A DNA stretch of 64,000 nucleotides. It comes from Gammaproteobacteria bacterium (lineage in GTDB: Bacteria > Pseudomonadota > Gammaproteobacteria > SZUA-152). The stretch is taken from NCBI GenBank assembly GCA_032250735.1, contig JAVVEP010000003.1:63962-127961 (forward strand). The letters run 5' to 3'. Of the stretch, positions 1 through 13,322 are shown piece by piece. Under the pieces are notes generated by a model. It did no database searches, was not told where the DNA came from, and worked only from the letters and a program-made list of their open reading frames with translations. Within the stretch, counting starts at the first letter, position 1. Every line of letters begins with the position of its first letter. Both the position numbers and the translations under genes were made by a program.

Positions 1-21
1 ATTTACGTCATTGCCGCAATA

Positions 22-1707
22 GTGGCTGTGTTCATATTGCAAAGGATTTACATCCGCCTACGACTATCGCTAGCCAAGCACCCCTCATTAAGAGGTCATG
101 CAAAATGGTCACGCCGGATAAGCAAGCTCGTCCCTTACTTCGGATATGGGGCAGACCGGTTCTTTTGTAGTGATGCCGCTCCTGCTGAAGTCGCAGATAA
201 TCGTCGTCAGGCCATGGACAGGCTCAGGCTGCGATTGCAATCACGTGCACCAAGAACGATGGCTGCAAGCCTCTCCCTGCAAGACAGTATTTCGGATGTA
301 AACTTTACCAGCAACTACCGTGTGCCCTTCCCGTATCGACAATTCCTGCCCGTTGAGTTCAAGGCCGGAACCATCGCCGAGCAAACTGACGGTGTCAGAA
401 TCAGGGACCTCGATGGAAACTGGAACTACGACCTTACCGGCTCTTATGGCGTCAACGTCTTCGGCTATGATTTTTACAAGGACTGCATGGAGTCCGGCTT
501 CGCCAAAGTAAAGGATCTTGGGCCCGTGCTGGGTACCTACCATCCGCTGATTCAGGAAAACGCTGAAATGCTGAAAGGCATTTCGGGACTCGATGAGGTC
601 TCATTTCACATGTCGGGCACCGAAGCAGTCATGCAGGCAGTGCGACTTGCACGTTATCACACAGGAAAATCACACCTGGTCAGGTTCTGTGGCGCATATC
701 ATGGATGGTGGGATGGCGTACAGCCAGGCATTGGCAATCAACGTAAGACCAATGACGTTTACACCCTTGCCGACCTCAGCAAGGCCACTCTCAAAGTACT
801 GGAAACGCGCAATGATATTGCCTGCGTGTTGATAAACCCACTACAGGCCCTGCATCCAAATTCTGACGCTCCCAGCGATGCAACACTGATTAACAGCTCA
901 AGATCTGCCCATTTTGATCGTGATACTTACACGGCATGGTTACACCAGATTCGTGACGTCTGCACACGAAAGAATATCGTGCTCATCTTTGATGAAGTGT
1001 TTACTGGCTTCCGGTTGGGATACAGAGGGGCGCAGGAATATTTCGACATACAGGCAGATATCGTAACGTACGGCAAGACATTGGGGGGCGGCCTGCCGAT
1101 TGGCGTGGTCTGTGGCCGACACCATTTGATGAAGCGCTACAAGGATAATCAGCCCGCAAACATCTCTTTCGCCAGAGGCACCTTCAATTCTCACCCCTAT
1201 GTGATGGGTTCGATGAATGAATTTCTGCACCGCATTGTCCAGCCGGAGATTATGAGCATCTACGAACAAGCAGATATTGTGTGGAATGCGAGAACCCAAC
1301 AACTCAATGAAGAGCTGGCAGATGAATCCCTGCCCGTGAGCATTGTCAATCTTCATTCCATCTGGACGATTCTCTATTCCAGACCATCTCGTTACAACTG
1401 GATGTTCCAGTTTTACCTCCGCGCACAGGGCCTTGAGATTAGCTGGGTCGGCACCGGGCGGATCATCATGAGCCTCAATTTCACCGACGACGATTTTAAC
1501 GAAGTCAAATCACGGTTTATACGCGCCGCACGGCAAATGGAAAATGACGGCTGGTGGTGGCAATCACGCGAGCTAACCAACAAATCCATCAAGCGGCAGA
1601 TGCTGAAAGAAATGATTGGCGCACGCCTCCCCTTATTCAAACCACACAAGGAGATTGAGGTACAGGATTGTACACGGCCACCAACCGTGGAGACCCTACA
1701 GCAATGA
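22..1707 (+). CDS. Class-III PLP-dependent aminotransferase (glutamate-1-semialdehyde aminomutase-like) with ~130-aa N-terminal extension; possibly 5'-truncated by the window edge
   Basis: 561-aa ORF with FHMSGTEAVMQAVRLAR, FDEVFTGFR and the PLP-lysine motif YGKTLGGGLPIG (Lys codon 1075-1077). The ORF-track start is GTG and the frame has no stop back to base 1. Confidence 0.8.
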   Translation: MAVFILQRIYIRLRLSLAKHPSLRGHAKWSRRISKLVPYFGYGADRFFCSDAAPAEVADNRRQAMDRLRLRLQSRAPRTMAASLSLQDSISDVNFTSNYRVPFPYRQFLPVEFKAGTIAEQTDGVRIRDLDGNWNYDLTGSYGVNVFGYDFYKDCMESGFAKVKDLGPVLGTYHPLIQENAEMLKGISGLDEVSFHMSGTEAVMQAVRLARYHTGKSHLVRFCGAYHGWWDGVQPGIGNQRKTNDVYTLADLSKATLKVLETRNDIACVLINPLQALHPNSDAPSDATLINSSRSAHFDRDTYTAWLHQIRDVCTRKNIVLIFDEVFTGFRLGYRGAQEYFDIQADIVTYGKTLGGGLPIGVVCGRHHLMKRYKDNQPANISFARGTFNSHPYVMGSMNEFLHRIVQPEIMSIYEQADIVWNARTQQLNEELADESLPVSIVNLHSIWTILYSRPSRYNWMFQFYLRAQGLEISWVGTGRIIMSLNFTDDDFNEVKSRFIRAARQMENDGWWWQSRELTNKSIKRQMLKEMIGARLPLFKPHKEIEVQDCTRPPTVETLQQ

Positions 1708-4412
1708 TCAACACTTCATACAGCGAACGAATGAGTGAATTCCGGACTTCCTTGCGTTCAGAGTTTGATGAATATCTAAAACAGATCACGCTCAAATATG
1801 ACCTGAAGAATTGCCTGAAGGTCGACCTGCATTGTCATGATCATAATAGCGACGTTCCTGACGAACTCTGGGGAAGAATTCTCAGACTGCCGGAAACCTG
1901 GCTGAAAACGCAGAATCTCGTCAAATGCCTGAAACAGAATGATTGCGATGTCATCACGGTGACCAATCATAATAATGCACGCTCGTGCTGGGAGCTGCAG
2001 GAACGGGGGTATGACGTACTGCCGGCAGCAGAATTCACCTGCCATTTCCCGGAGTACAACCTGTTCGTCCACATACTCACCTATGGCTTCACCCGGCAGC
2101 AGGAAAAGACCCTGAATAAAAAGCGCCAGAATATTTACGACTTCCTGCGCTACACCGCTGTCAATGATCTGCCGGTAATCCTGCCCCATCCGCTGTATTT
2201 CTACACCAGGAACGACAAGATAGACCTAAGTCTTTTCGAAAAGTTGGCTGTCATGTTTCAGCGATTCGAGGTCCTTAACGGTCAACGGGATCTGTGGCAA
2301 AGCGTATTAACGCTTAACTGGGCCGAAGGTCTTACGCCTGAAAAGATCCTGGGCTTCGCAAAAAAGCACGATCTCGATCCCGCCGACTATGGTGTTGATC
2401 CCTACCGTCCAAAAATATTGACCGGTGGCTCAGATTGCCACACAGGCATCTTTGCCGGCCAGTGCGGAAGCTATTTATATATACCCGACCTGCAGGAAAG
2501 GCTGGAGCATTCAACGCCCTCCGCACTGGCGCTTGAGGCCATCCGCGAAGGCAATGTCGCGGCCTTTGGGCATGTTGCCGAGAATCAAAAACTGAATATT
2601 GCATTGCTGGACTATTTCTCTCAGGTGGCGACAAAAATCGAGGATCCTGGCCTGTTGCGCATCCTGTTCCATCGCGGCGAAGTATCCGACAAGGTCTCCT
2701 GCCTGGTGATCAGTAATCTTCTTCTGGAAATGAAAAAGCACAAGAACACGCAGAAGTTCTTTGAGTTCGTCCACAACGCACTGCATGGCAAAAAACCTAA
2801 CAAATTGTTGAAATGGAAAGTCAGCAAGGATTATCGCTTCTGCATTACCCAACTGGAAAAAATCGCTGTCAGCTGCAACGGCCCGCCAGAGATCTTTATT
2901 GATACCGTCAATCAGGCAGTCAACGATCTGTTCCTGGATCTTAATAGGCTGATCATAAAAAGGATTAAGAAATCCGGTGATTCATCAGAAAAATACAGAT
3001 TAAAGTCCTTTTCTACTGAGGAAATCACCCGCAAATTTGAGGTGCCGAGTCAATTGACGGCACTGATCTTCGGCAACAAGTCAATGCAGGAGGACATGAG
3101 CGAACTAAGCGTCTCAAAACTGTTTGATAACCTCTCCTTCCCGGTCCTGGTCGGCATCATCCTCACCAGCGTGACTCTTGGCAGCACCCGGCTGCTGTAT
3201 CAGAACCGCAGCTTCCTGAATGACTTCTCTGATTATATTGGCAGAAACCAACACCCAAGACGCGCCCTTTATCTTACCGATACATTAAGGGACAAAAATG
3301 GCGTATCCAACTCCCTGTCAGCCAAACTTGCTGAAATTCAGCGCATGGATCTGCCGGTTGATATCTTGATCTGTCATCCTGACGCACAACCTGAACCGCA
3401 CCTGCATGTTGTACGACCACTGACTTCATTCACCGTACCGGATTTTGGCGAGCAAGAACTGCGGATTCCTGACTTGCTCGAGATTGCACGCCTGTTCTAT
3501 GAAGGCGGATACGATCGGATTGTGTGCTCTACTGAAGGACCGATGGCACTCGTTTCACTGTTCATCAAGCACATGTTCAATGTGCCTAGTTTTTTCTTCA
3601 TGCACACTGACTGGCTGGATTACATCAAGGACACCACGGACCTCACATTGCATGAGCGTGACCGGATACGGCGCACCTTGCGCGTCTTCTATAAGCAGTA
3701 CTCCGGTGTCTTCGTGCTCAATAACGAACATCGCGACTGGCTTGTTGGCCACCATATGCAGCTTGCGGATGAACGGGTTTTCTTAACCGCCCACCATACA
3801 TCCGCCCGCGACAACAGCGTTACTGGTGTTAACAAGACGGACCTGTTCAATGACGCCATTGCCAATACGCCTGTACTGCTTTTCGCAGGAAGGATCAGCA
3901 AGGAGAAAGGCATCTTCGATTTGCCGGACATTATCGCCAATGTCAAACAGTCAATGCCTGATGTGAAAATAGTTATTGCAGGCACCGGGCCTGCTGAAGA
4001 TGCACTCAAGCAGGCCTTACCGGAAGCACTCTTTCTTGGCTGGGTCGACAAACACTACCTGGCCGAGCTTTATGCGGGACTCGATCTTTTTGTTTTCCCA
4101 TCACGGTTCGATACCTTCGGCAATGTCATCCTCGAATCATTCACGTATGGCATGCCCGCCGTTGCCTATAATTGCAAGGGGCCAAAAGACATCATTCAAC
4201 ATGATGTGTCCGGGTATCTGGCAAACGATATCGAACAGATGAGCGATCACATCATTCGCTTCTTCTCATCCGAGCCAAAACGCGCCGGAATGATCCAAAA
4301 GGCTATTCGCAGATCCCAGGATTATCAGGCAGAGCCCATCATGCAGAAATTCCTGCAAGATATGGGTCTTGGCATGCCGCCAGTACTAATCGAGCAGCAA
4401 TCGGTCGCGTAA
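1704..4412 (+). CDS. Fusion protein: N-terminal PHP-family phosphoesterase plus C-terminal GT4 (group 1) glycosyltransferase
   Basis: N-terminus has DLHCHDHNSD and ITVTNHNN (PHP HxH metal motifs). C-terminus has FAGRISKEKG...VKIVIAGTGP...FVFPSRFDTFGNVILESFTYGMPAVA (GT4 signature). The ORF track starts at TTG 1668; ATG 1704 forms an ATGA overlap with the upstream stop, and GGAGA lies 12 nt upstream. Confidence 0.75.
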   Translation: MINTSYSERMSEFRTSLRSEFDEYLKQITLKYDLKNCLKVDLHCHDHNSDVPDELWGRILRLPETWLKTQNLVKCLKQNDCDVITVTNHNNARSCWELQERGYDVLPAAEFTCHFPEYNLFVHILTYGFTRQQEKTLNKKRQNIYDFLRYTAVNDLPVILPHPLYFYTRNDKIDLSLFEKLAVMFQRFEVLNGQRDLWQSVLTLNWAEGLTPEKILGFAKKHDLDPADYGVDPYRPKILTGGSDCHTGIFAGQCGSYLYIPDLQERLEHSTPSALALEAIREGNVAAFGHVAENQKLNIALLDYFSQVATKIEDPGLLRILFHRGEVSDKVSCLVISNLLLEMKKHKNTQKFFEFVHNALHGKKPNKLLKWKVSKDYRFCITQLEKIAVSCNGPPEIFIDTVNQAVNDLFLDLNRLIIKRIKKSGDSSEKYRLKSFSTEEITRKFEVPSQLTALIFGNKSMQEDMSELSVSKLFDNLSFPVLVGIILTSVTLGSTRLLYQNRSFLNDFSDYIGRNQHPRRALYLTDTLRDKNGVSNSLSAKLAEIQRMDLPVDILICHPDAQPEPHLHVVRPLTSFTVPDFGEQELRIPDLLEIARLFYEGGYDRIVCSTEGPMALVSLFIKHMFNVPSFFFMHTDWLDYIKDTTDLTLHERDRIRRTLRVFYKQYSGVFVLNNEHRDWLVGHHMQLADERVFLTAHHTSARDNSVTGVNKTDLFNDAIANTPVLLFAGRISKEKGIFDLPDIIANVKQSMPDVKIVIAGTGPAEDALKQALPEALFLGWVDKHYLAELYAGLDLFVFPSRFDTFGNVILESFTYGMPAVAYNCKGPKDIIQHDVSGYLANDIEQMSDHIIRFFSSEPKRAGMIQKAIRRSQDYQAEPIMQKFLQDMGLGMPPVLIEQQSVA

Positions 4413-4414
4413 TC

Positions 4415-5326
4415 ATGGCCAGTATCGTTCGCAATATGAGTCAGCAGGAACAGTTAAATTTTCTGTTGACCAACAGAATTCCGCGACGCTACCTGACACG
4501 ATTGATGGGCTGGTATAGCAAGATAGAAAGCCGCGCATTGACCAGGCTTTCCCTAGTCATCTGGAAACATTTCGCTGCCGATCTTGACCTTACCGAAGCA
4601 AAACACTCTACGTTCCGTAGCCTTCATGACTGTTTTATTCGCGAACTGAAGAGCGGTGCTCGCCAGGTAGATACCGACCTACATACCATCACCTGCCCCT
4701 GCGATGCCATTGTCGGCGAGTGCGGGCCAATTACGGGAACACAGGTATTCCAGGCAAAGGGCTTTCCCTACGAGCTGGCCGAGCTTATTCCCGACAAAAC
4801 CTTACAGGAAAAGTATCGCGACGGCATCTACGTGACATTGCGCCTCAAGTCTTCCATGTATCACCGTTTTCATGCGCCCATCGACTGCAGGGTAACGCAC
4901 ATTGATTACATCTCAGGAGATACCTGGAACGTGAACCCTGTCGCCCTCAAGCGCATCGAGAAGCTTTTCTGTAAAAATGAACGGGCCGTCGTTGAGCTAG
5001 TGCTCGGTGATGAGGTAGACGATGCGCACCAAAAAAGTATCACCCTGGTGCCGGTTGCTGCAATCCTGGTCGCCAGCATGAAATTCCACTGCCTGGACAC
5101 CGAGCTGGATCTTCAATACCGCGGGCCTAACCGTTTACCCTGCGATGCCCAATACCGGAAAGGCGACGAGATGGGTTATTTTCAACACGGCTCGACCATC
5201 ATTCTGTTCGCGACCTCTCATTACAGACTGCATGACAGCGTATCGACGGGCAACAGAATATTCATGGGACAGGCTCTGCTCACGGACAATGACATTTCTA
5301 ATCGACAACCAACCAAAGAGGGATAA
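4415..5326 (+). CDS. Phosphatidylserine decarboxylase-family pyruvoyl proenzyme
   Basis: 303 aa with FIRELKSGARQVD, SSMYHRFHAP and the self-cleavage motif HGST (5189-5197). The ATG lies 2 nt after the upstream stop. Confidence 0.8.
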   Translation: MASIVRNMSQQEQLNFLLTNRIPRRYLTRLMGWYSKIESRALTRLSLVIWKHFAADLDLTEAKHSTFRSLHDCFIRELKSGARQVDTDLHTITCPCDAIVGECGPITGTQVFQAKGFPYELAELIPDKTLQEKYRDGIYVTLRLKSSMYHRFHAPIDCRVTHIDYISGDTWNVNPVALKRIEKLFCKNERAVVELVLGDEVDDAHQKSITLVPVAAILVASMKFHCLDTELDLQYRGPNRLPCDAQYRKGDEMGYFQHGSTIILFATSHYRLHDSVSTGNRIFMGQALLTDNDISNRQPTKEG

Positions 5327-5331
5327 TCGTC

Positions 5332-5961
5332 ATGGGATTCTTTGAAGAACTGCAACAACAACGCTGGGACGACCATCGTTTTTATCACCATAACCGTGTA
5401 AACCAGACGCTGCATTTACTCAGCGCTTTCTGTTTTCTCACCAGCTATATACTGATATTTGTCAACCCGGTGCTGGCGGTAATGGTCGGCTGGCTGCTGG
5501 CGATGATTCTACGCCAGGTGGGCCATTTCTTTTTTGAACCGAAAACCTATGACGCCGTAAACCAGGCATCGCATGAATACAAGGAAAAAGTAAAGGTTGG
5601 TTATAACCTGCACCGAAAAATCATACTCTTATCCGTGTGGGTAGCCTCCCCCTTGGTCCTGTTTGTCGACGCGAGCCTGTTCGGCCTGTTTCAGCCACAC
5701 CAGGACCTTGCAGGGTTCATTGATCACACGGCGATGATCTGGCTATTTGTCGGTATCGGCGCGGTTGTATTCCGCACCCTACACCTGTTTTTTATCATGG
5801 GCGTGCAGTCAGGTCTGGTATGGTTTTCCAAGATCCTTACCGATCCCTTTCATGATATTAAAATCTACTACAAGTCGCCGTATTACCTGTTTAAAGGCGA
5901 TATGTATGATGACATGAGCGACTGGTATGATGTCCCTCGCGTTGCCAAGACTCGAAAATAG
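5332..5961 (+). CDS. His-rich polytopic membrane protein, tentatively DUF962/Mpo1-like
   Basis: 209 aa with several hydrophobic helices and the motifs HHNRVNQTLH and GHFFFEP. AGAGGGA Shine-Dalgarno; 5-nt gap to the upstream gene. Confidence 0.55.
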   Translation: MGFFEELQQQRWDDHRFYHHNRVNQTLHLLSAFCFLTSYILIFVNPVLAVMVGWLLAMILRQVGHFFFEPKTYDAVNQASHEYKEKVKVGYNLHRKIILLSVWVASPLVLFVDASLFGLFQPHQDLAGFIDHTAMIWLFVGIGAVVFRTLHLFFIMGVQSGLVWFSKILTDPFHDIKIYYKSPYYLFKGDMYDDMSDWYDVPRVAKTRK

Positions 5962-6125
5962 TCCGTCTGAATCACCCATATGTTTTTTAGCCATCGTTAT
6001 GAGGGTCGGCATAATCTGGCATCACGAATTCTTTAGGCGTGATTACTCTTCATGCTTACCTTGACAGCGATGCCTGTCTCTTGAGAGGCGCGTGCGAACC
6101 CCGGTCGTCATTCGGTCAGTCACTG

Positions 6126-6662
6126 TTATTCATGGCCTGGACCCTCGCCACCCAAGGCAACAAACTCACCGGTGAACCTGCCCACCACCTGGCCCTCGTA
6201 TTCCAGCACGGCGCCGACAGCAATCCTGGCCTTGCCCTTGCGCATCAGCATGCGCGTAAAGCGGGGCCAGTCCTGCGGCCGCTCGATCGACGAGCGTGCC
6301 GTAAACTCGCCGTCAATGGGGCGTTCGTATTCCACCGAATTGCGCTGAATCACCACACGGCTATCGATACCGGCGCTGCGCAGCCGGGTGTACAGCAGAG
6401 ACCACGCCGCAAGAATCGCCAGCGCCGAGGCACTGCCACCGAACACCGTTTCACGATGATTGATGTTCGGCTTCAGCGGCGCGCGCAACACCACCTCATC
6501 CTCCGCCATGGAAACCACCGACACCGCCATCGCCTTTGACAATGGAATGTGCTCATGAAGGTATTGTTCAAGCTGGGTGTATGGCACAGGCCTCTCCCTC
6601 TTTACAAACATGGCAGGCAGGGTGGACATGAATTTTGTGCCCACATGGTACCGATACGCCAC
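6126..6662 (-). CDS. Hotdog-fold thioesterase (YiiD C-terminal domain-like)
   Basis: 178-aa ORF with PLKPNINHRETVFGGSASALAILAAWSLLY, typical of YiiD_C/PaaI-like thioesterases. The exact start is uncertain. Confidence 0.65.
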   Translation of the reverse strand: MAYRYHVGTKFMSTLPAMFVKRERPVPYTQLEQYLHEHIPLSKAMAVSVVSMAEDEVVLRAPLKPNINHRETVFGGSASALAILAAWSLLYTRLRSAGIDSRVVIQRNSVEYERPIDGEFTARSSIERPQDWPRFTRMLMRKGKARIAVGAVLEYEGQVVGRFTGEFVALGGEGPGHE

Positions 6663-6761: not shown

Positions 6762-7202
6762 CTAGCCCTTTAAGTCATTCGGTTTCCAGTAACGCTGCAT
6801 TTCTATAAACAGGAACGACGCTGACCAGGTAATCATTACCAGCCCGGTCAGGGCCTCTAGCCCGGTCAAATGTCGCAGATCACCGATCGCGTCAATATCG
6901 CCATATCCCAGGGTGGTGTAGGTGCTAAACGAAAAGTACACACAGTCCAGCACACTGCCATCAAACCCTCCGCTCAAATGGCCCCACCCTTGCGCATGAT
7001 GCATGAAGTAGTACGCCAGCGCGAACACCCAGACCTCAATCGTATGGGCAATCATCGCGCCGAACACGCCCAGCAAAATCAGGAATCGATGCCGTATCCT
7101 GATGCGTTGGAGATGTAGTGTCAGTCGATACAAGAACTCATAGTGAATAATGACCACGACCGCGATAACGATACTGTTGACGATAAATACGGGTAGCACC
7201 AC
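6762..7202 (-). CDS. Minimal potassium channel (pore-only, no cytoplasmic gating domain)
   Basis: 146 aa with the selectivity filter TTLGYGD flanked by hydrophobic helices. Confidence 0.8.
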   Translation of the reverse strand: MVLPVFIVNSIVIAVVVIIHYEFLYRLTLHLQRIRIRHRFLILLGVFGAMIAHTIEVWVFALAYYFMHHAQGWGHLSGGFDGSVLDCVYFSFSTYTTLGYGDIDAIGDLRHLTGLEALTGLVMITWSASFLFIEMQRYWKPNDLKG

Positions 7203-7308: not shown

Positions 7309-7893
7309 TTAAAAGCTTGGCTCCATCTTTTTATGGTTAAAGGTGTAGTCACCTATACTACGTTCGCCGTTGTTGTCGATGGCCAGCAGGCGTACGCGCA
7401 GGGTGGTGGTCGGCAGGGCGCGCAAGGCGTCGATACCCGTGGAGAACACCACCGTCCCGCTGTCGGCGGTAAACGGAATATCGTGCAGGCGCATGCCGCT
7501 CTCGTTATCATCATCACCATCGAGGTAGATCATGTCGAGCTGCTGCACGCCCTCCAGCGGCGCCTTGAGATAGGCCACCACGAAGTCGTCCTCGGGGGCG
7601 ACGGTGCAGTTCACCGCGCCATTGAGCGGCACGTAATACTCCCGCACGTGCATGCCCTGCTCTACCAAGCGCTGTACGAACGGCTCATTGATGACCACGC
7701 TCACGCCGCTTGTGCGGGTGAGATCGCGCACTTGCTGGGCCAGGGCGACAAGCTGTTGCAGGCGGCGGCTGCATGGCTCGCAACCCAGATAGTGCTCCTC
7801 GACCTGCGCCTCGCGCTCGGCATCCAGCTCGCCAAGCCAGTAGGCAAGCAGGCTATCCCATACCACGGGTGACTGACAGTCTGAGGATTTCAT
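7309..7893 (-). CDS. Zinc-finger (HxxxCxxC) anti-sigma factor, apparently soluble
   Basis: EEHYLGCEPC ZAS motif near the N-terminus and no obvious TM helix. ATG 7893 overlaps the sigma-factor stop (ATGA). Confidence 0.7.
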   Translation of the reverse strand: MKSSDCQSPVVWDSLLAYWLGELDAEREAQVEEHYLGCEPCSRRLQQLVALAQQVRDLTRTSGVSVVINEPFVQRLVEQGMHVREYYVPLNGAVNCTVAPEDDFVVAYLKAPLEGVQQLDMIYLDGDDDNESGMRLHDIPFTADSGTVVFSTGIDALRALPTTTLRVRLLAIDNNGERSIGDYTFNHKKMEPSF

Positions 7894-8459
7894 TCGCTTT
7901 CTCCGGTAACACACCGGCGCAGGCGTTCAAGGCCGCGGTGACGGATGACGCGCACATTTGCCGCACTCAGTTCCAGCTCTTGCGCCAGGGCCTCGGCCGG
8001 CAATTCGTTATAGAAACTCAATATCAGGATGGTTCGCTCCCGTTCCGACAACGATTCCAGACAGGGCGCAAGGCGCTTGCCGTCCAGCTCCGGCAGCGTG
8101 ACCTCCGGCGGCGACAGTGCCTCGCCATAGGTCTCCAGCAGGCGTTCGCGCCGGCTGTGGCCACGGCGCAGCTCCAGCACCACCATGCGGCAGATGCCAA
8201 ACACGAACGAGGCCAGTCGCTCCTGTTCGCGGAGTGCACCGGCGCGCAGACGCTCGATCAGCATCAGCATCACCTGCTGCATAAGATCCGCGGCGGCGGC
8301 CTCACTGCGCAGATGCCGCAGGCCATACAGCCGCACGCGCGGCGCAAGCCGTCGACAGAGTTCCGCCTCCGCCTCACGGTCGACAGCGGGCGCCGCCTGC
8401 GCCACCCGCTGGGCCAGGCTGGCGTCGTCGAAAGGGGTTTCGGACTCTTGTCGGCACAT
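7890..8459 (-). CDS. ECF-type RNA polymerase sigma-70 factor
   Basis: 189 aa. Region 4 reads LSERERTILILSFYNELPAEALAQELELSAANVRVIRHRGLERLR, and a region 2-like segment lies upstream. Confidence 0.85.
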   Translation of the reverse strand: MCRQESETPFDDASLAQRVAQAAPAVDREAEAELCRRLAPRVRLYGLRHLRSEAAAADLMQQVMLMLIERLRAGALREQERLASFVFGICRMVVLELRRGHSRRERLLETYGEALSPPEVTLPELDGKRLAPCLESLSERERTILILSFYNELPAEALAQELELSAANVRVIRHRGLERLRRCVTGESE

Positions 8460-9441: not shown

Positions 9442-9883
9442 GGACTTAAGTAAAAACCGTTATCTCCCGCACATCACACTCTGCGCTTAACTCAATACGG
9501 CTTTTTTCGTAGGGTGGGCATTGCCCACCATTGCACCAAACCCAACAATGCCGGATTGATGGAGAATGCCTACCTTACCTGACAGCGGAACCACCACCGA
9601 TCATTAACATTCGGCGCAATGCCCTTCGGTTATTGCGCCCTACGGGCTGAGTGCTGAGTGCTGAGTGCTGAGTGCTGAGGACTTAAGTAAAAACCGTTAT
9701 CTCCCGCACATCACACTCTGCGCTTAACTCAATACGGCTTTTTTCGTAGGGTGGGCATTGCCCACCATTGCACCAAACCCAACAATGCCGGATTGGTGGA
9801 GAATGCCTACCTTACCTGACAGCGGAACCACCACCGATCATTAACATCCGGCGCAATGCCCTTCGGTTATTGCGCCCTACGGG
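9442..9883. repeat. Tandem duplication with 237-bp period: two ~205-bp units (9442-9646 and 9679-9883) separated by a second (GTGCTGA)x4 tract (9644-9678)
   Basis: The units align base for base except 9559A/9796G and 9611T/9848C. Each contains the palindromes CGTAGGGTGGGCATTGCCCACC and GGCGCAAT-N11-ATTGCGCC. Confidence 0.95.
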
Positions 9884-9897
9884 CCTGCCTGACTCTA

Positions 9898-10263
9898 TTA
9901 AACAAGATCAGTTTTGCAGTGTTTACAAATTCTGGCGGCCTGCTTAATTTCCTCTGCACACATGGGGCAAAATCGGATATCGGAATCATTAGGACTGGAT
10001 TGTTTTGGTAAAGATTTAGCAGTTTCGTGCGGACCTTCGATGAGTTCATGCTGGCAATGCGGGCAAACAGTAGCATCTTCTCTAATTGTTTTTTTGCAAA
10101 ATTGACACTCTATTTTGTCTGGACCAGCTAAAAACGAAAACAATAATCCGAAGGGGCCAAAGATTACACCAATAATGAAATATAAAAAACCACGCCCACC
10201 TCTACTTGATGCGACTAAGGCGGAAGCAAAACCGAACAGCAACCATAATAAAAAGTATCCCAT
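9898..10263 (-). CDS. Small membrane protein with two C-terminal zinc-ribbon (CxxC...CxxC) motifs
   Basis: 121 aa: two N-terminal hydrophobic helices, then CQFCKK...CPHCQHEL and CPMCAEE...CKHCKTDL. Markedly AT-rich compared with its flanks. Confidence 0.6.
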   Translation of the reverse strand: MGYFLLWLLFGFASALVASSRGGRGFLYFIIGVIFGPFGLLFSFLAGPDKIECQFCKKTIREDATVCPHCQHELIEGPHETAKSLPKQSSPNDSDIRFCPMCAEEIKQAARICKHCKTDLV

Positions 10264-10409
10264 ATTCTTTTCCTCACTTGCTTAATAGGGCAAGCTAATA
10301 TTTATGTTCGCCATTGAATCCGCGAAATCTTATTGGTGTCCAGCTCAACATAATAATGCAATAAGAAGCACAATCTTCAATCAAAGCTTATAAGGAACCC
10401 CAAAACCTT

Positions 10410-13322
<2,913 letters not shown>

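Follow-up and report, generated by a model that had tools for sequence, protein, structure and literature searches.

A PHP–GT4 fusion protein encoded behind Pho boxes in a gammaproteobacterium and its predicted role in phosphorus-free glycolipid synthesis

The DNA stretch analyzed in this study, referred to as the window, comprises 64,000 nucleotides of a contig from a Gammaproteobacteria bacterium (JAVVEP010000003.1, here contig C19, positions 63962–127961). Close to its beginning, it carries a gene (1704..4412, forward strand) encoding a fusion of an N-terminal PHP phosphoesterase domain, a helical middle domain, and a C-terminal glycosyltransferase of family GT4. We consider it rather probable that this fusion is a PhoB-induced, membrane-associated bifunctional enzyme for the synthesis of phosphorus-free glycolipids. 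As read from the nucleotide sequence, it is the second of four genes predicted to be translationally coupled and located behind two Pho boxes.

Architecture and distribution of the fusion

The fusion gene was recovered as a single uninterrupted frame on the forward strand, ending at 4412 with a TAA stop codon (4410–4412), as deduced from the listing of open reading frames (ORFs) and from the translation. An initial annotation of this DNA had described one ORF of 914 aa. One gene it is, but the length of 914 aa is counted from a TTG codon at position 1668, and the predicted product is 902 aa long, starting with the ATG at 1704. This start was chosen because the ATG overlaps the stop codon of the preceding aminotransferase gene as ATGA, the M1 of this form is invariant across the family alignment, and the modal length of the homologues is 902 aa. 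All motifs quoted in the initial annotation were found in the protein, namely DLHCHDH (residues 41–47), TNHNN (87–91), FPVLVGIILTSVTLG (479–493), and FPSRFDTFGNVILESFTYGMPAVA (798–821).

Residues ~30–290 (1791..2573, forward strand) were modeled as a PHP fold, which represents a distorted (beta/alpha)7 barrel. Structure prediction and a Foldseek search, both proposed with the initial annotation, were carried out for residues 1–500. The resulting AlphaFold2 model reached a predicted local distance difference test score (pLDDT) of 85 and a predicted template modeling score (pTM) of 0.81, and its top 12 Foldseek matches were exclusively PHP phosphoesterases (E 4e-6 to 5e-4). Using VIA-align, residues ~30–290 were superimposed on 3e38 (Z 16.6, root-mean-square deviation 3.6, 203 aligned residues), 7rty (Z 16.2), 3o0f (Z 15.9), and 2anu (Z 15.5), followed by the PHP enzymes RNase AM, Cv1693, and EndoQ at Z 14. 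The alignment of 32 N-terminal regions revealed the motif series D41-x-H43-x-H45 ... D244-x-H246 and the metal ligands H43, H45, H89, E110, H123, H162, D244, and H246. All eight ligands are invariant in 117 out of 117 close homologues, so the domain is not degenerate, and their conservation is still 93% or more in two groups of more distant relatives. The PHP identity proposed earlier from the motifs is thus borne out by the model and its Foldseek matches, by VIA-align, and by the conserved ligand motifs. At the level of sequence profiles, a search against PDB sequences yielded a marginal PHP match (3e0f, E 0.024), and distant relatives of the protein showed only sub-threshold matches to Pfam PHP and PHP_C.

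Between the two catalytic domains, the initial annotation had placed a linker of ~230 aa. Instead, this region comprises a conserved all-helical domain of ~200 aa with no recognizable fold (residues ~295–500; 2586..3203, forward strand). It is as conserved as the catalytic domains, featuring a consensus identity of 0.65–0.86 among close homologues, and reached a pLDDT of ~80 when folded alone. Compared to 48,161 PDB chains, its best Z value was 6.5, corresponding to the background for helical proteins, and no fold could be named; a search of the ESM Atlas with this domain found nothing. The domain is closed by a hydrophobic helix (residues 477–495, LSFPVLVGIILTSVTLGST; 3132..3188, forward strand; Kyte-Doolittle value of 1.72 over 19 aa), whose hydrophobicity is kept across the homologues while its sequence varies. 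This helix probably either serves as a monotopic membrane anchor or is buried within the protein. A true transmembrane helix at 477–495 is, by topological reasoning, judged unlikely, because a 476-aa domain lacking a signal peptide would then sit outside the cell, split from the nucleotide-sugar-dependent domain.

The C-terminal part of the protein (residues ~505–890; the interval 3216..4358 on the forward strand encodes residues ~505–885) was assigned, as a complete domain, to retaining GT4 glycosyltransferases of the GT-B type on the basis of Pfam matches, PDB relatives, and motifs. Both halves of the domain scored above the Pfam cut-offs, namely Glyco_transf_4 (PF13439) at residues 532–683 (E 4.7e-8, 33.7 bits, cut-off 28.5) and Glycos_transf_1 (PF00534) at 721–869 (E 6e-29, 101 bits, cut-off 26.4), which confirms the canonical GT4 domain described previously. 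Its solved relatives are BshA, PimA, GlgA, and sucrose-phosphate synthase (SPS), with E values of 5e-9 or weaker. Invariant residues are N532-G533, H634, R730, K735, D803, and E811, the last four representing the donor-binding residues and the acidic motif being D803-x7-E811, i.e., D-x7-E instead of E-x7-E. The N-terminal half of the GT4 domain also contains a cationic amphipathic helix with a net charge of +4 (residues 653–670); a similar helix is carried by peripheral lipid glycosyltransferases. Stand-alone GT4 proteins of ~390 aa, which are 42–47% identical to the GT4 domain of the fusion, occur in Bacteroidota.

A word-indexed search retrieved 1307 relatives of the protein. The best 120 of these were nearly all ~902 aa long, showed 66–82% identity over the N-terminal 500 residues, and included members of Paraglaciecola, Marinobacter, Aliikangiella, Psychrobacter, and Mariprofundus. 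In the exhaustive representative search, 723 clusters were obtained, 465 of them at E ≤ 1e-10. This search also uncovered a second group of ~800-aa proteins with a PHP-like and a GT4 part, matching the PHP core only (~33% identity). A profile of this group retrieved 972 proteins, the groups represented being Kiritimatiellota, Spirochaetota, KSB1, Endomicrobia, Aminicenantes, Marinimicrobia, and Desulfobacterota; some of its members are named glycosyltransferase/PHP phosphoesterase by JGI. The residue preceding H89 is N in the ~900-aa subfamily (TNHN) and D in the ~800-aa family (TDHN). Aligned with hhalign, the two groups matched over 769 columns (residues 32–882) with a probability of 100, an E value of 8e-118, and a profile identity of ~25%, and on this alignment they are one family of PHP–GT4 fusions. 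Judged from its homologues, the fusion is real, old, and widespread.

That the PHP half lacks catalytic activity and serves as a scaffold or for regulation, or that the fusion represents an assembly or frameshift artefact, is hardly credible. Pfam is blind to the PHP domain in this protein, which would suit such an explanation, but the ligand conservation in close and distant homologues speaks against a mere scaffold, and the equal-length architecture among homologues from independent assemblies (nearly all of the best 120 of 1307) speaks against an artefact. The fusion of PHP and GT4 in a single gene, as initially described, was therefore confirmed. Independently of this, a 462-aa protein (P0273) was observed whose 80% identity is confined to the GT4 half; it resides on a 136-kb contig, the end of which did not cut it, and it may be an infrequent variant in which the fusion is split or frameshifted.

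Operon structure and predicted phosphate control

The first gene of the operon (1..1707, forward strand) encodes a class-III aminotransferase of the AMT/GSA-like type with 574 aa and an N-terminal transmembrane helix (Pfam Aminotran_3, E 4e-34). Its ATG is located 18 bp before the window, at L002:11945 in the coordinates of the corresponding locus. The best solved relative of this protein is the AMT (beta-ketoacyl aminotransferase) domain of the mycosubtilin synthase MycA (6kfm, E 1.4e-51), sugar C-6' aminotransferases being also among its structural-relative matches. The fusion gene is followed by a gene for a 303-aa pyruvoyl decarboxylase paralogue of the phosphatidylserine decarboxylase (PSD) family (4415..5326, forward strand; Pfam PS_Dcarbxylase, E 5.5e-53; TIGR00163 above cut-off). 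In total, the genome contains three PSD-family genes, namely the operon copy and two more. The last gene (5332..5961, forward strand) encodes a polytopic membrane protein of 209 aa assigned to Mpo1-like/DUF962 proteins by synteny and by a Pfam Mpo1-like match that just missed the cut-off (E 6e-5, 23.5 bits, cut-off 24). The junctions between the four genes are -4, +2, and +5 bp, and the GC content of the module is ~0.50, as compared to ~0.53–0.62 across most of the 10 kb upstream.

The operon is predicted to be under PhoB/Pho-box control. Two Pho boxes precede the aminotransferase gene, namely ATGTCACAAAACTGACAT at L002:11750, ~195 bp before the ATG, and TCGTCACAAAACTGTCAT at L002:11882, ~63 bp before the ATG. 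Between the end of the latter and the ATG there are 46 bp, and the hexamer TAGAGT lies 10 bp downstream of this box. When the whole genome was scanned for the Pho-box consensus and no more than one mismatch was tolerated, three sites resulted, two of them located on contig C19 near 175–176 kb. One of the three, ATGTCACAAAACTGTCAC, lies ahead of an ORF resembling a long PstC (candidate pst locus), and the two boxes of the operon are nearly identical to this candidate pst box. When up to two mismatches were allowed, 72 Pho-box-like sites were detected in the 3.4-Mb genome, two of which are the pair in this promoter. As a separate observation, 17 of these 72 sites reside on the 195-kb contig C19, where they cluster at the apparent pst locus (175168–178692) and also form a divergent pair near 32.8 kb (32768/32870); the contig thus seems to be rich in Pho-regulon genes.

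The comparison was extended to other genomes by counting same-strand boxes in the 200 bp preceding the module, three mismatches being the maximum allowed. Such boxes were present at 27 of 63 loci; among other intergenic regions, 10 of 243 carried one (Fisher p ~1e-13, where the loci are related and their independence is thus overstated). In these genomes, the boxes cluster 64–76 bp from the start codon. The order of the four genes was kept in ~72 out of 80 genome loci featuring a relative of the N-terminal domain, with 56–77% identity per protein, the sole exception being the aminotransferase of locus L048 (48%). These syntenic loci belong to Gamma- and Zetaproteobacteria, Binatia, and one metagenome-assembled genome (MAG) of Margulisiibacteriota. 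Of 401 genomes sampled from the phylum, 32 contained the aminotransferase and only 14 the N-terminal PHP domain, 13 of the latter genomes belonging to one family.

Six loci hold the fusion without the trio of aminotransferase, PSD paralogue, and Mpo1-like protein, and flanking genes were tested against Pfam in four of them. Neighbors related to phosphate stress were detected at three of these four loci. In Marinobacter (L056), a PhoD gene (4879–6645, reverse strand) is divergent from the trio-less fusion. In an Oleiphilaceae MAG (L036), a PhoX gene (264–2459, reverse strand) lies divergently, with four tandem half-sites in the spacer, and a 5'-nucleotidase-like gene is located downstream of the fusion. 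In a zetaproteobacterium (L028), the fusion adjoins a gene for an OlsF-like bifunctional PlsC+GNAT acyltransferase/ornithine-lipid synthase (9701–11488, reverse strand). At the fourth locus (L046, Allohahella), the neighboring genes code for a phage-type integrase, a PEP-CTERM protein, and an acetyltransferase of the GNAT type. Of the two other loci, L058 and L064 (Luminiphilus), the single neighbor tested, in L058, did not match any Pfam family.

Around the operon of the window, the genes upstream (subtilase, exosortase-like) and downstream are unrelated to the module or lie on the opposite strand. Directly downstream, all on the reverse strand, genes were found for a YiiD_C-type thioesterase (6126–6662), a pore-only K+ channel of 146 aa (6762–7202), and a pair of extracytoplasmic function (ECF) sigma and zf-HC2 anti-sigma factors (7309–8459), none of which is conserved beside the module in other genomes. 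Shortly before the window, a 305-aa ORF (L002:10618–11535, forward strand, corresponding to C19:62617–63534) showed no Pfam match. Its C-terminal end, a hydrophobic stretch and then RR (...PLPPALLLLATSILGLMGFSRRS), resembles a PEP-CTERM-type sorting signal. A few kb further upstream, an exosortase-like ORF (L002:7234–7755) and a subtilase featuring a TSP3 repeat were observed.

Proposed function and alternatives

Under phosphate starvation, the PHP half would hydrolyze a phosphoester of membrane phospholipids, acting either as a phospholipase-C-type diesterase on phosphatidylethanolamine (PE) or phosphatidylglycerol, or as a phosphatidate phosphatase, so that phosphate or a phospho-head group would be released and diacylglycerol (DAG) would be left. 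The GT4 half, presumably tethered to the same membrane surface through the hydrophobic and the cationic amphipathic helix, would use a nucleotide sugar to attach a hexose or hexuronate to that DAG, resulting in lipids of the monoglycosyldiacylglycerol (MGDG) or glucuronic acid diacylglycerol (GADG) type. The aminotransferase, the PSD paralogue, and the Mpo1-like protein may act on the same lipid pool, either feeding it or modifying the product. In bacteria relying on the cytidine diphosphate-DAG (CDP-DAG) pathway, DAG becomes available only through an additional phosphoesterase. A position of the PHP half upstream of the transferase appears to be its simplest role, because the Pho boxes, the membrane partners, the PhoD, PhoX, and OlsF neighbors, and the Agt enzyme of Desulfovibrio alaskensis (Dde_3613, described in the last section) indicate lipid remodeling. 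From these indications, we infer a lipid phosphoester as the substrate of the PHP half, DAG as the acceptor, and MGDG or GADG as the product.

A more far-reaching version of this proposal is doubtful. According to it, one polypeptide takes a membrane phospholipid to the glycolipid, the helical domain serves as a membrane-embedded conduit for DAG from PHP to GT4, and the partners complete an undescribed pathway. The latter could lead from phosphatidylserine (PS) via PE (by PSD) and phosphatidate (by a membrane-anchored class-III pyridoxal phosphate-dependent enzyme acting as phospho-lyase) to DAG and the glycolipid, or from the glycolipid to an amine-bearing, phosphorus-free PE surrogate. Likewise, two readings of the trio itself are conceivable: it may convert the glycolipid, or some other lipid, into one that bears an amine and lacks phosphorus, or it may dismantle aminophospholipids (PS to PE by PSD, followed by removal of the head group) and thereby feed the PHP–GT4 fusion. 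An ethanolamine-phosphate-lyase-like role of the aminotransferase was considered speculative, the MycA beta-ketoacyl aminotransferase domain being its best solved relative.

Several observations, beside the relatedness of the loci in the Pho-box count, weigh against the assignment of the fusion to glycolipid synthesis. Nucleotides or nucleic acids, not lipids, are the substrates of the nearest solved PHP enzymes, and residues 1–500 matched no domain of Pfam or NCBIfam, with PHP (PF02811) escaping detection even at E ≤ 1. The sequence of the GT4 domain does not reveal its acceptor: its top NCBIfam matches resemble BshA and stay far under their cut-offs, as do the scores of the NCBIfam models for lipid glycosyltransferases. 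Dde_3613 appears, from its annotation string, to belong to the ~800-aa PHP–GT4 family, and it was absent among the best 120 of the 972 matches of the ~800-aa profile search. Furthermore, the trio occurs elsewhere together with a stand-alone GT4 protein (26–30% identical) and without PHP, and the PHP domain is therefore not indispensable to the pathway of the trio. A variant cluster lacking a PHP domain was found at L083, L084, and L092 in apparently high-GC genomes of 5–8 Mb and has the order GT4 (350 aa), Mpo1-like protein, and aminotransferase; a PSD-family gene follows in L083 and L084, and no PSD match was obtained in L092. Among the ORFs tested in other genomes, none beside trio-plus-GT4 variants encodes PlcP, the phospholipase C of the known lipid-remodeling route, and a PlcP-like gene was likewise not seen in the operon of the window.

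The occurrence of the trio plus GT4 without PHP would also agree with an explanation in which the PHP half is a phosphate-scavenging or housekeeping esterase acting on a released head group (phosphoethanolamine or glycerol-3-phosphate), on uridine diphosphate, or on another nucleotide, DAG being provided by another enzyme. The nearest solved PHP enzymes, which are nucleotide or pAp phosphatases and RNases, fit such a role, and so do the neighbors in other genomes that scavenge soluble phosphate (PhoX, PhoD, and the 5'-nucleotidase-like gene). However, the fusion is kept across many phyla with a conserved domain of 200 aa between its halves, which argues for coupled consecutive steps, and we regard a scavenging esterase as unlikely.

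In the initial annotation, the reverse order of reactions had been proposed, i.e., a synthase followed by a phosphatase acting on a phosphorylated glycoside or glycolipid, in analogy to pathways for compatible solutes. In its wider form, the GT4 half would first make a phosphorylated glycoside or glycolipid, via glycerol-3-phosphate, phosphatidate, or a polyprenyl or other lipid phosphate, from which the PHP half would then remove the phosphate, as is the case for sucrose-phosphate synthase and phosphatase. GT4 synthase-phosphatase fusions do exist, SPS-like proteins are among the PDB matches of the GT4 domain, the intact PHP site is compatible with this sequence of events, and nothing in the data fixes the order of the two reactions. 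Nevertheless, the context is that of the Pho regulon and of membrane lipids rather than of osmolyte genes, and membrane anchors are predicted on the partners and on the fusion. In addition, the PHP-annotated enzyme of D. alaskensis G20 is required for DAG-based glycolipids, and the supply of DAG is the very step that proteobacteria lack for such lipids, as established for the CDP-DAG pathway. In the form initially stated, the order is thus unsupported, since the Pho boxes, the membrane-anchored partners, and the PhoD, PhoX, and OlsF neighbors point to lipid remodeling, and the synthase-first order is on the whole improbable.

Comparison with known systems

The exchange of phospholipids for phosphorus-free lipids is a major route of survival under phosphate scarcity in marine and soil bacteria, the textbook route being that of PlcP and Agt. 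PlcP possesses the calcineurin-like metallophosphoesterase fold. The phospholipase C PlcP and the GT4 enzyme Agt are regulated by PhoB and replace phospholipids by MGDG and GADG (PMC4796936); the pair occurs in SAR11, roseobacters, Sinorhizobium, Agrobacterium, and Pseudomonas (PMC4796936, PMC8528852). Control by Pho boxes and the pairing of a phosphoesterase with a GT4 enzyme are features in common with the fusion described here, the MGDG or GADG product being only predicted for the latter. In contrast, PlcP is a separate polypeptide of another fold, whereas the phosphoesterase in the window has the predicted PHP fold and is fused to GT4 through the 200-aa helical domain.

Regarding the fusions themselves, a mutant of Dde_3613 ("Agt") in Desulfovibrio (Oleidesulfovibrio) alaskensis G20 produced neither MGDG nor GADG under phosphate limitation, and the gene was required only under this condition (PMC5193443). 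The main text of that study by Bosak et al. (2016) is silent on a PHP half (PMC5193443), and the automatic annotation of Dde_3613 reports an N-terminal PHP domain. This annotation and the role in phosphate limitation resemble what is proposed for the fusion in the window, with which the ~800-aa family, including Desulfobacterota, aligns end to end. Differences concern motif II, which is TNHN in the window fusion, and the aminotransferase/PSD/Mpo1 trio, which is not described for G20 in PMC5193443. The wider PHP–GT4 family appears to have one genetically characterized member and to follow the logic of PlcP and Agt. For the PHP half, the helical domain, the ~900-aa subfamily, and the four-gene module, no characterization was found in the literature searched.

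Among PHP enzymes, those of the COG0613/TM0559/BVU_3505/PsfC type (3e38, 7rty, 3o0f, 2anu, 2yb1, and 7ug9) have the fold (Z 14–16.6) and an identical set of His, Glu, and Asp ligands in common with the window protein. However, their identity to it is only 14–20%, they use nucleotides, RNA, and small phosphoesters, and none of them carries a fused glycosyltransferase. Sucrose-phosphate synthase with an SPP-like domain resembles the window fusion in combining GT4 with a phosphatase-type domain; unlike the latter, it features a C-terminal phosphatase of the HAD type, yields a soluble osmolyte, and is neither Pho-regulated nor membrane-linked.

Provided that the proposed function holds true, a lipid substrate would be added to the known range of PHP enzymes, the source of DAG would be explained for bacteria lacking PlcP, and phosphate stress could be traced in metagenomes by a marker gene. 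The aminotransferase, PSD, and Mpo1-like partners may, moreover, make an undescribed lipid. Compared to the PlcP–Agt system, the PHP–GT4 family would then represent a second, structurally unrelated solution, distributed over many phyla and groups including Zetaproteobacteria, marine Gammaproteobacteria, Desulfobacterota, and Kiritimatiellota.

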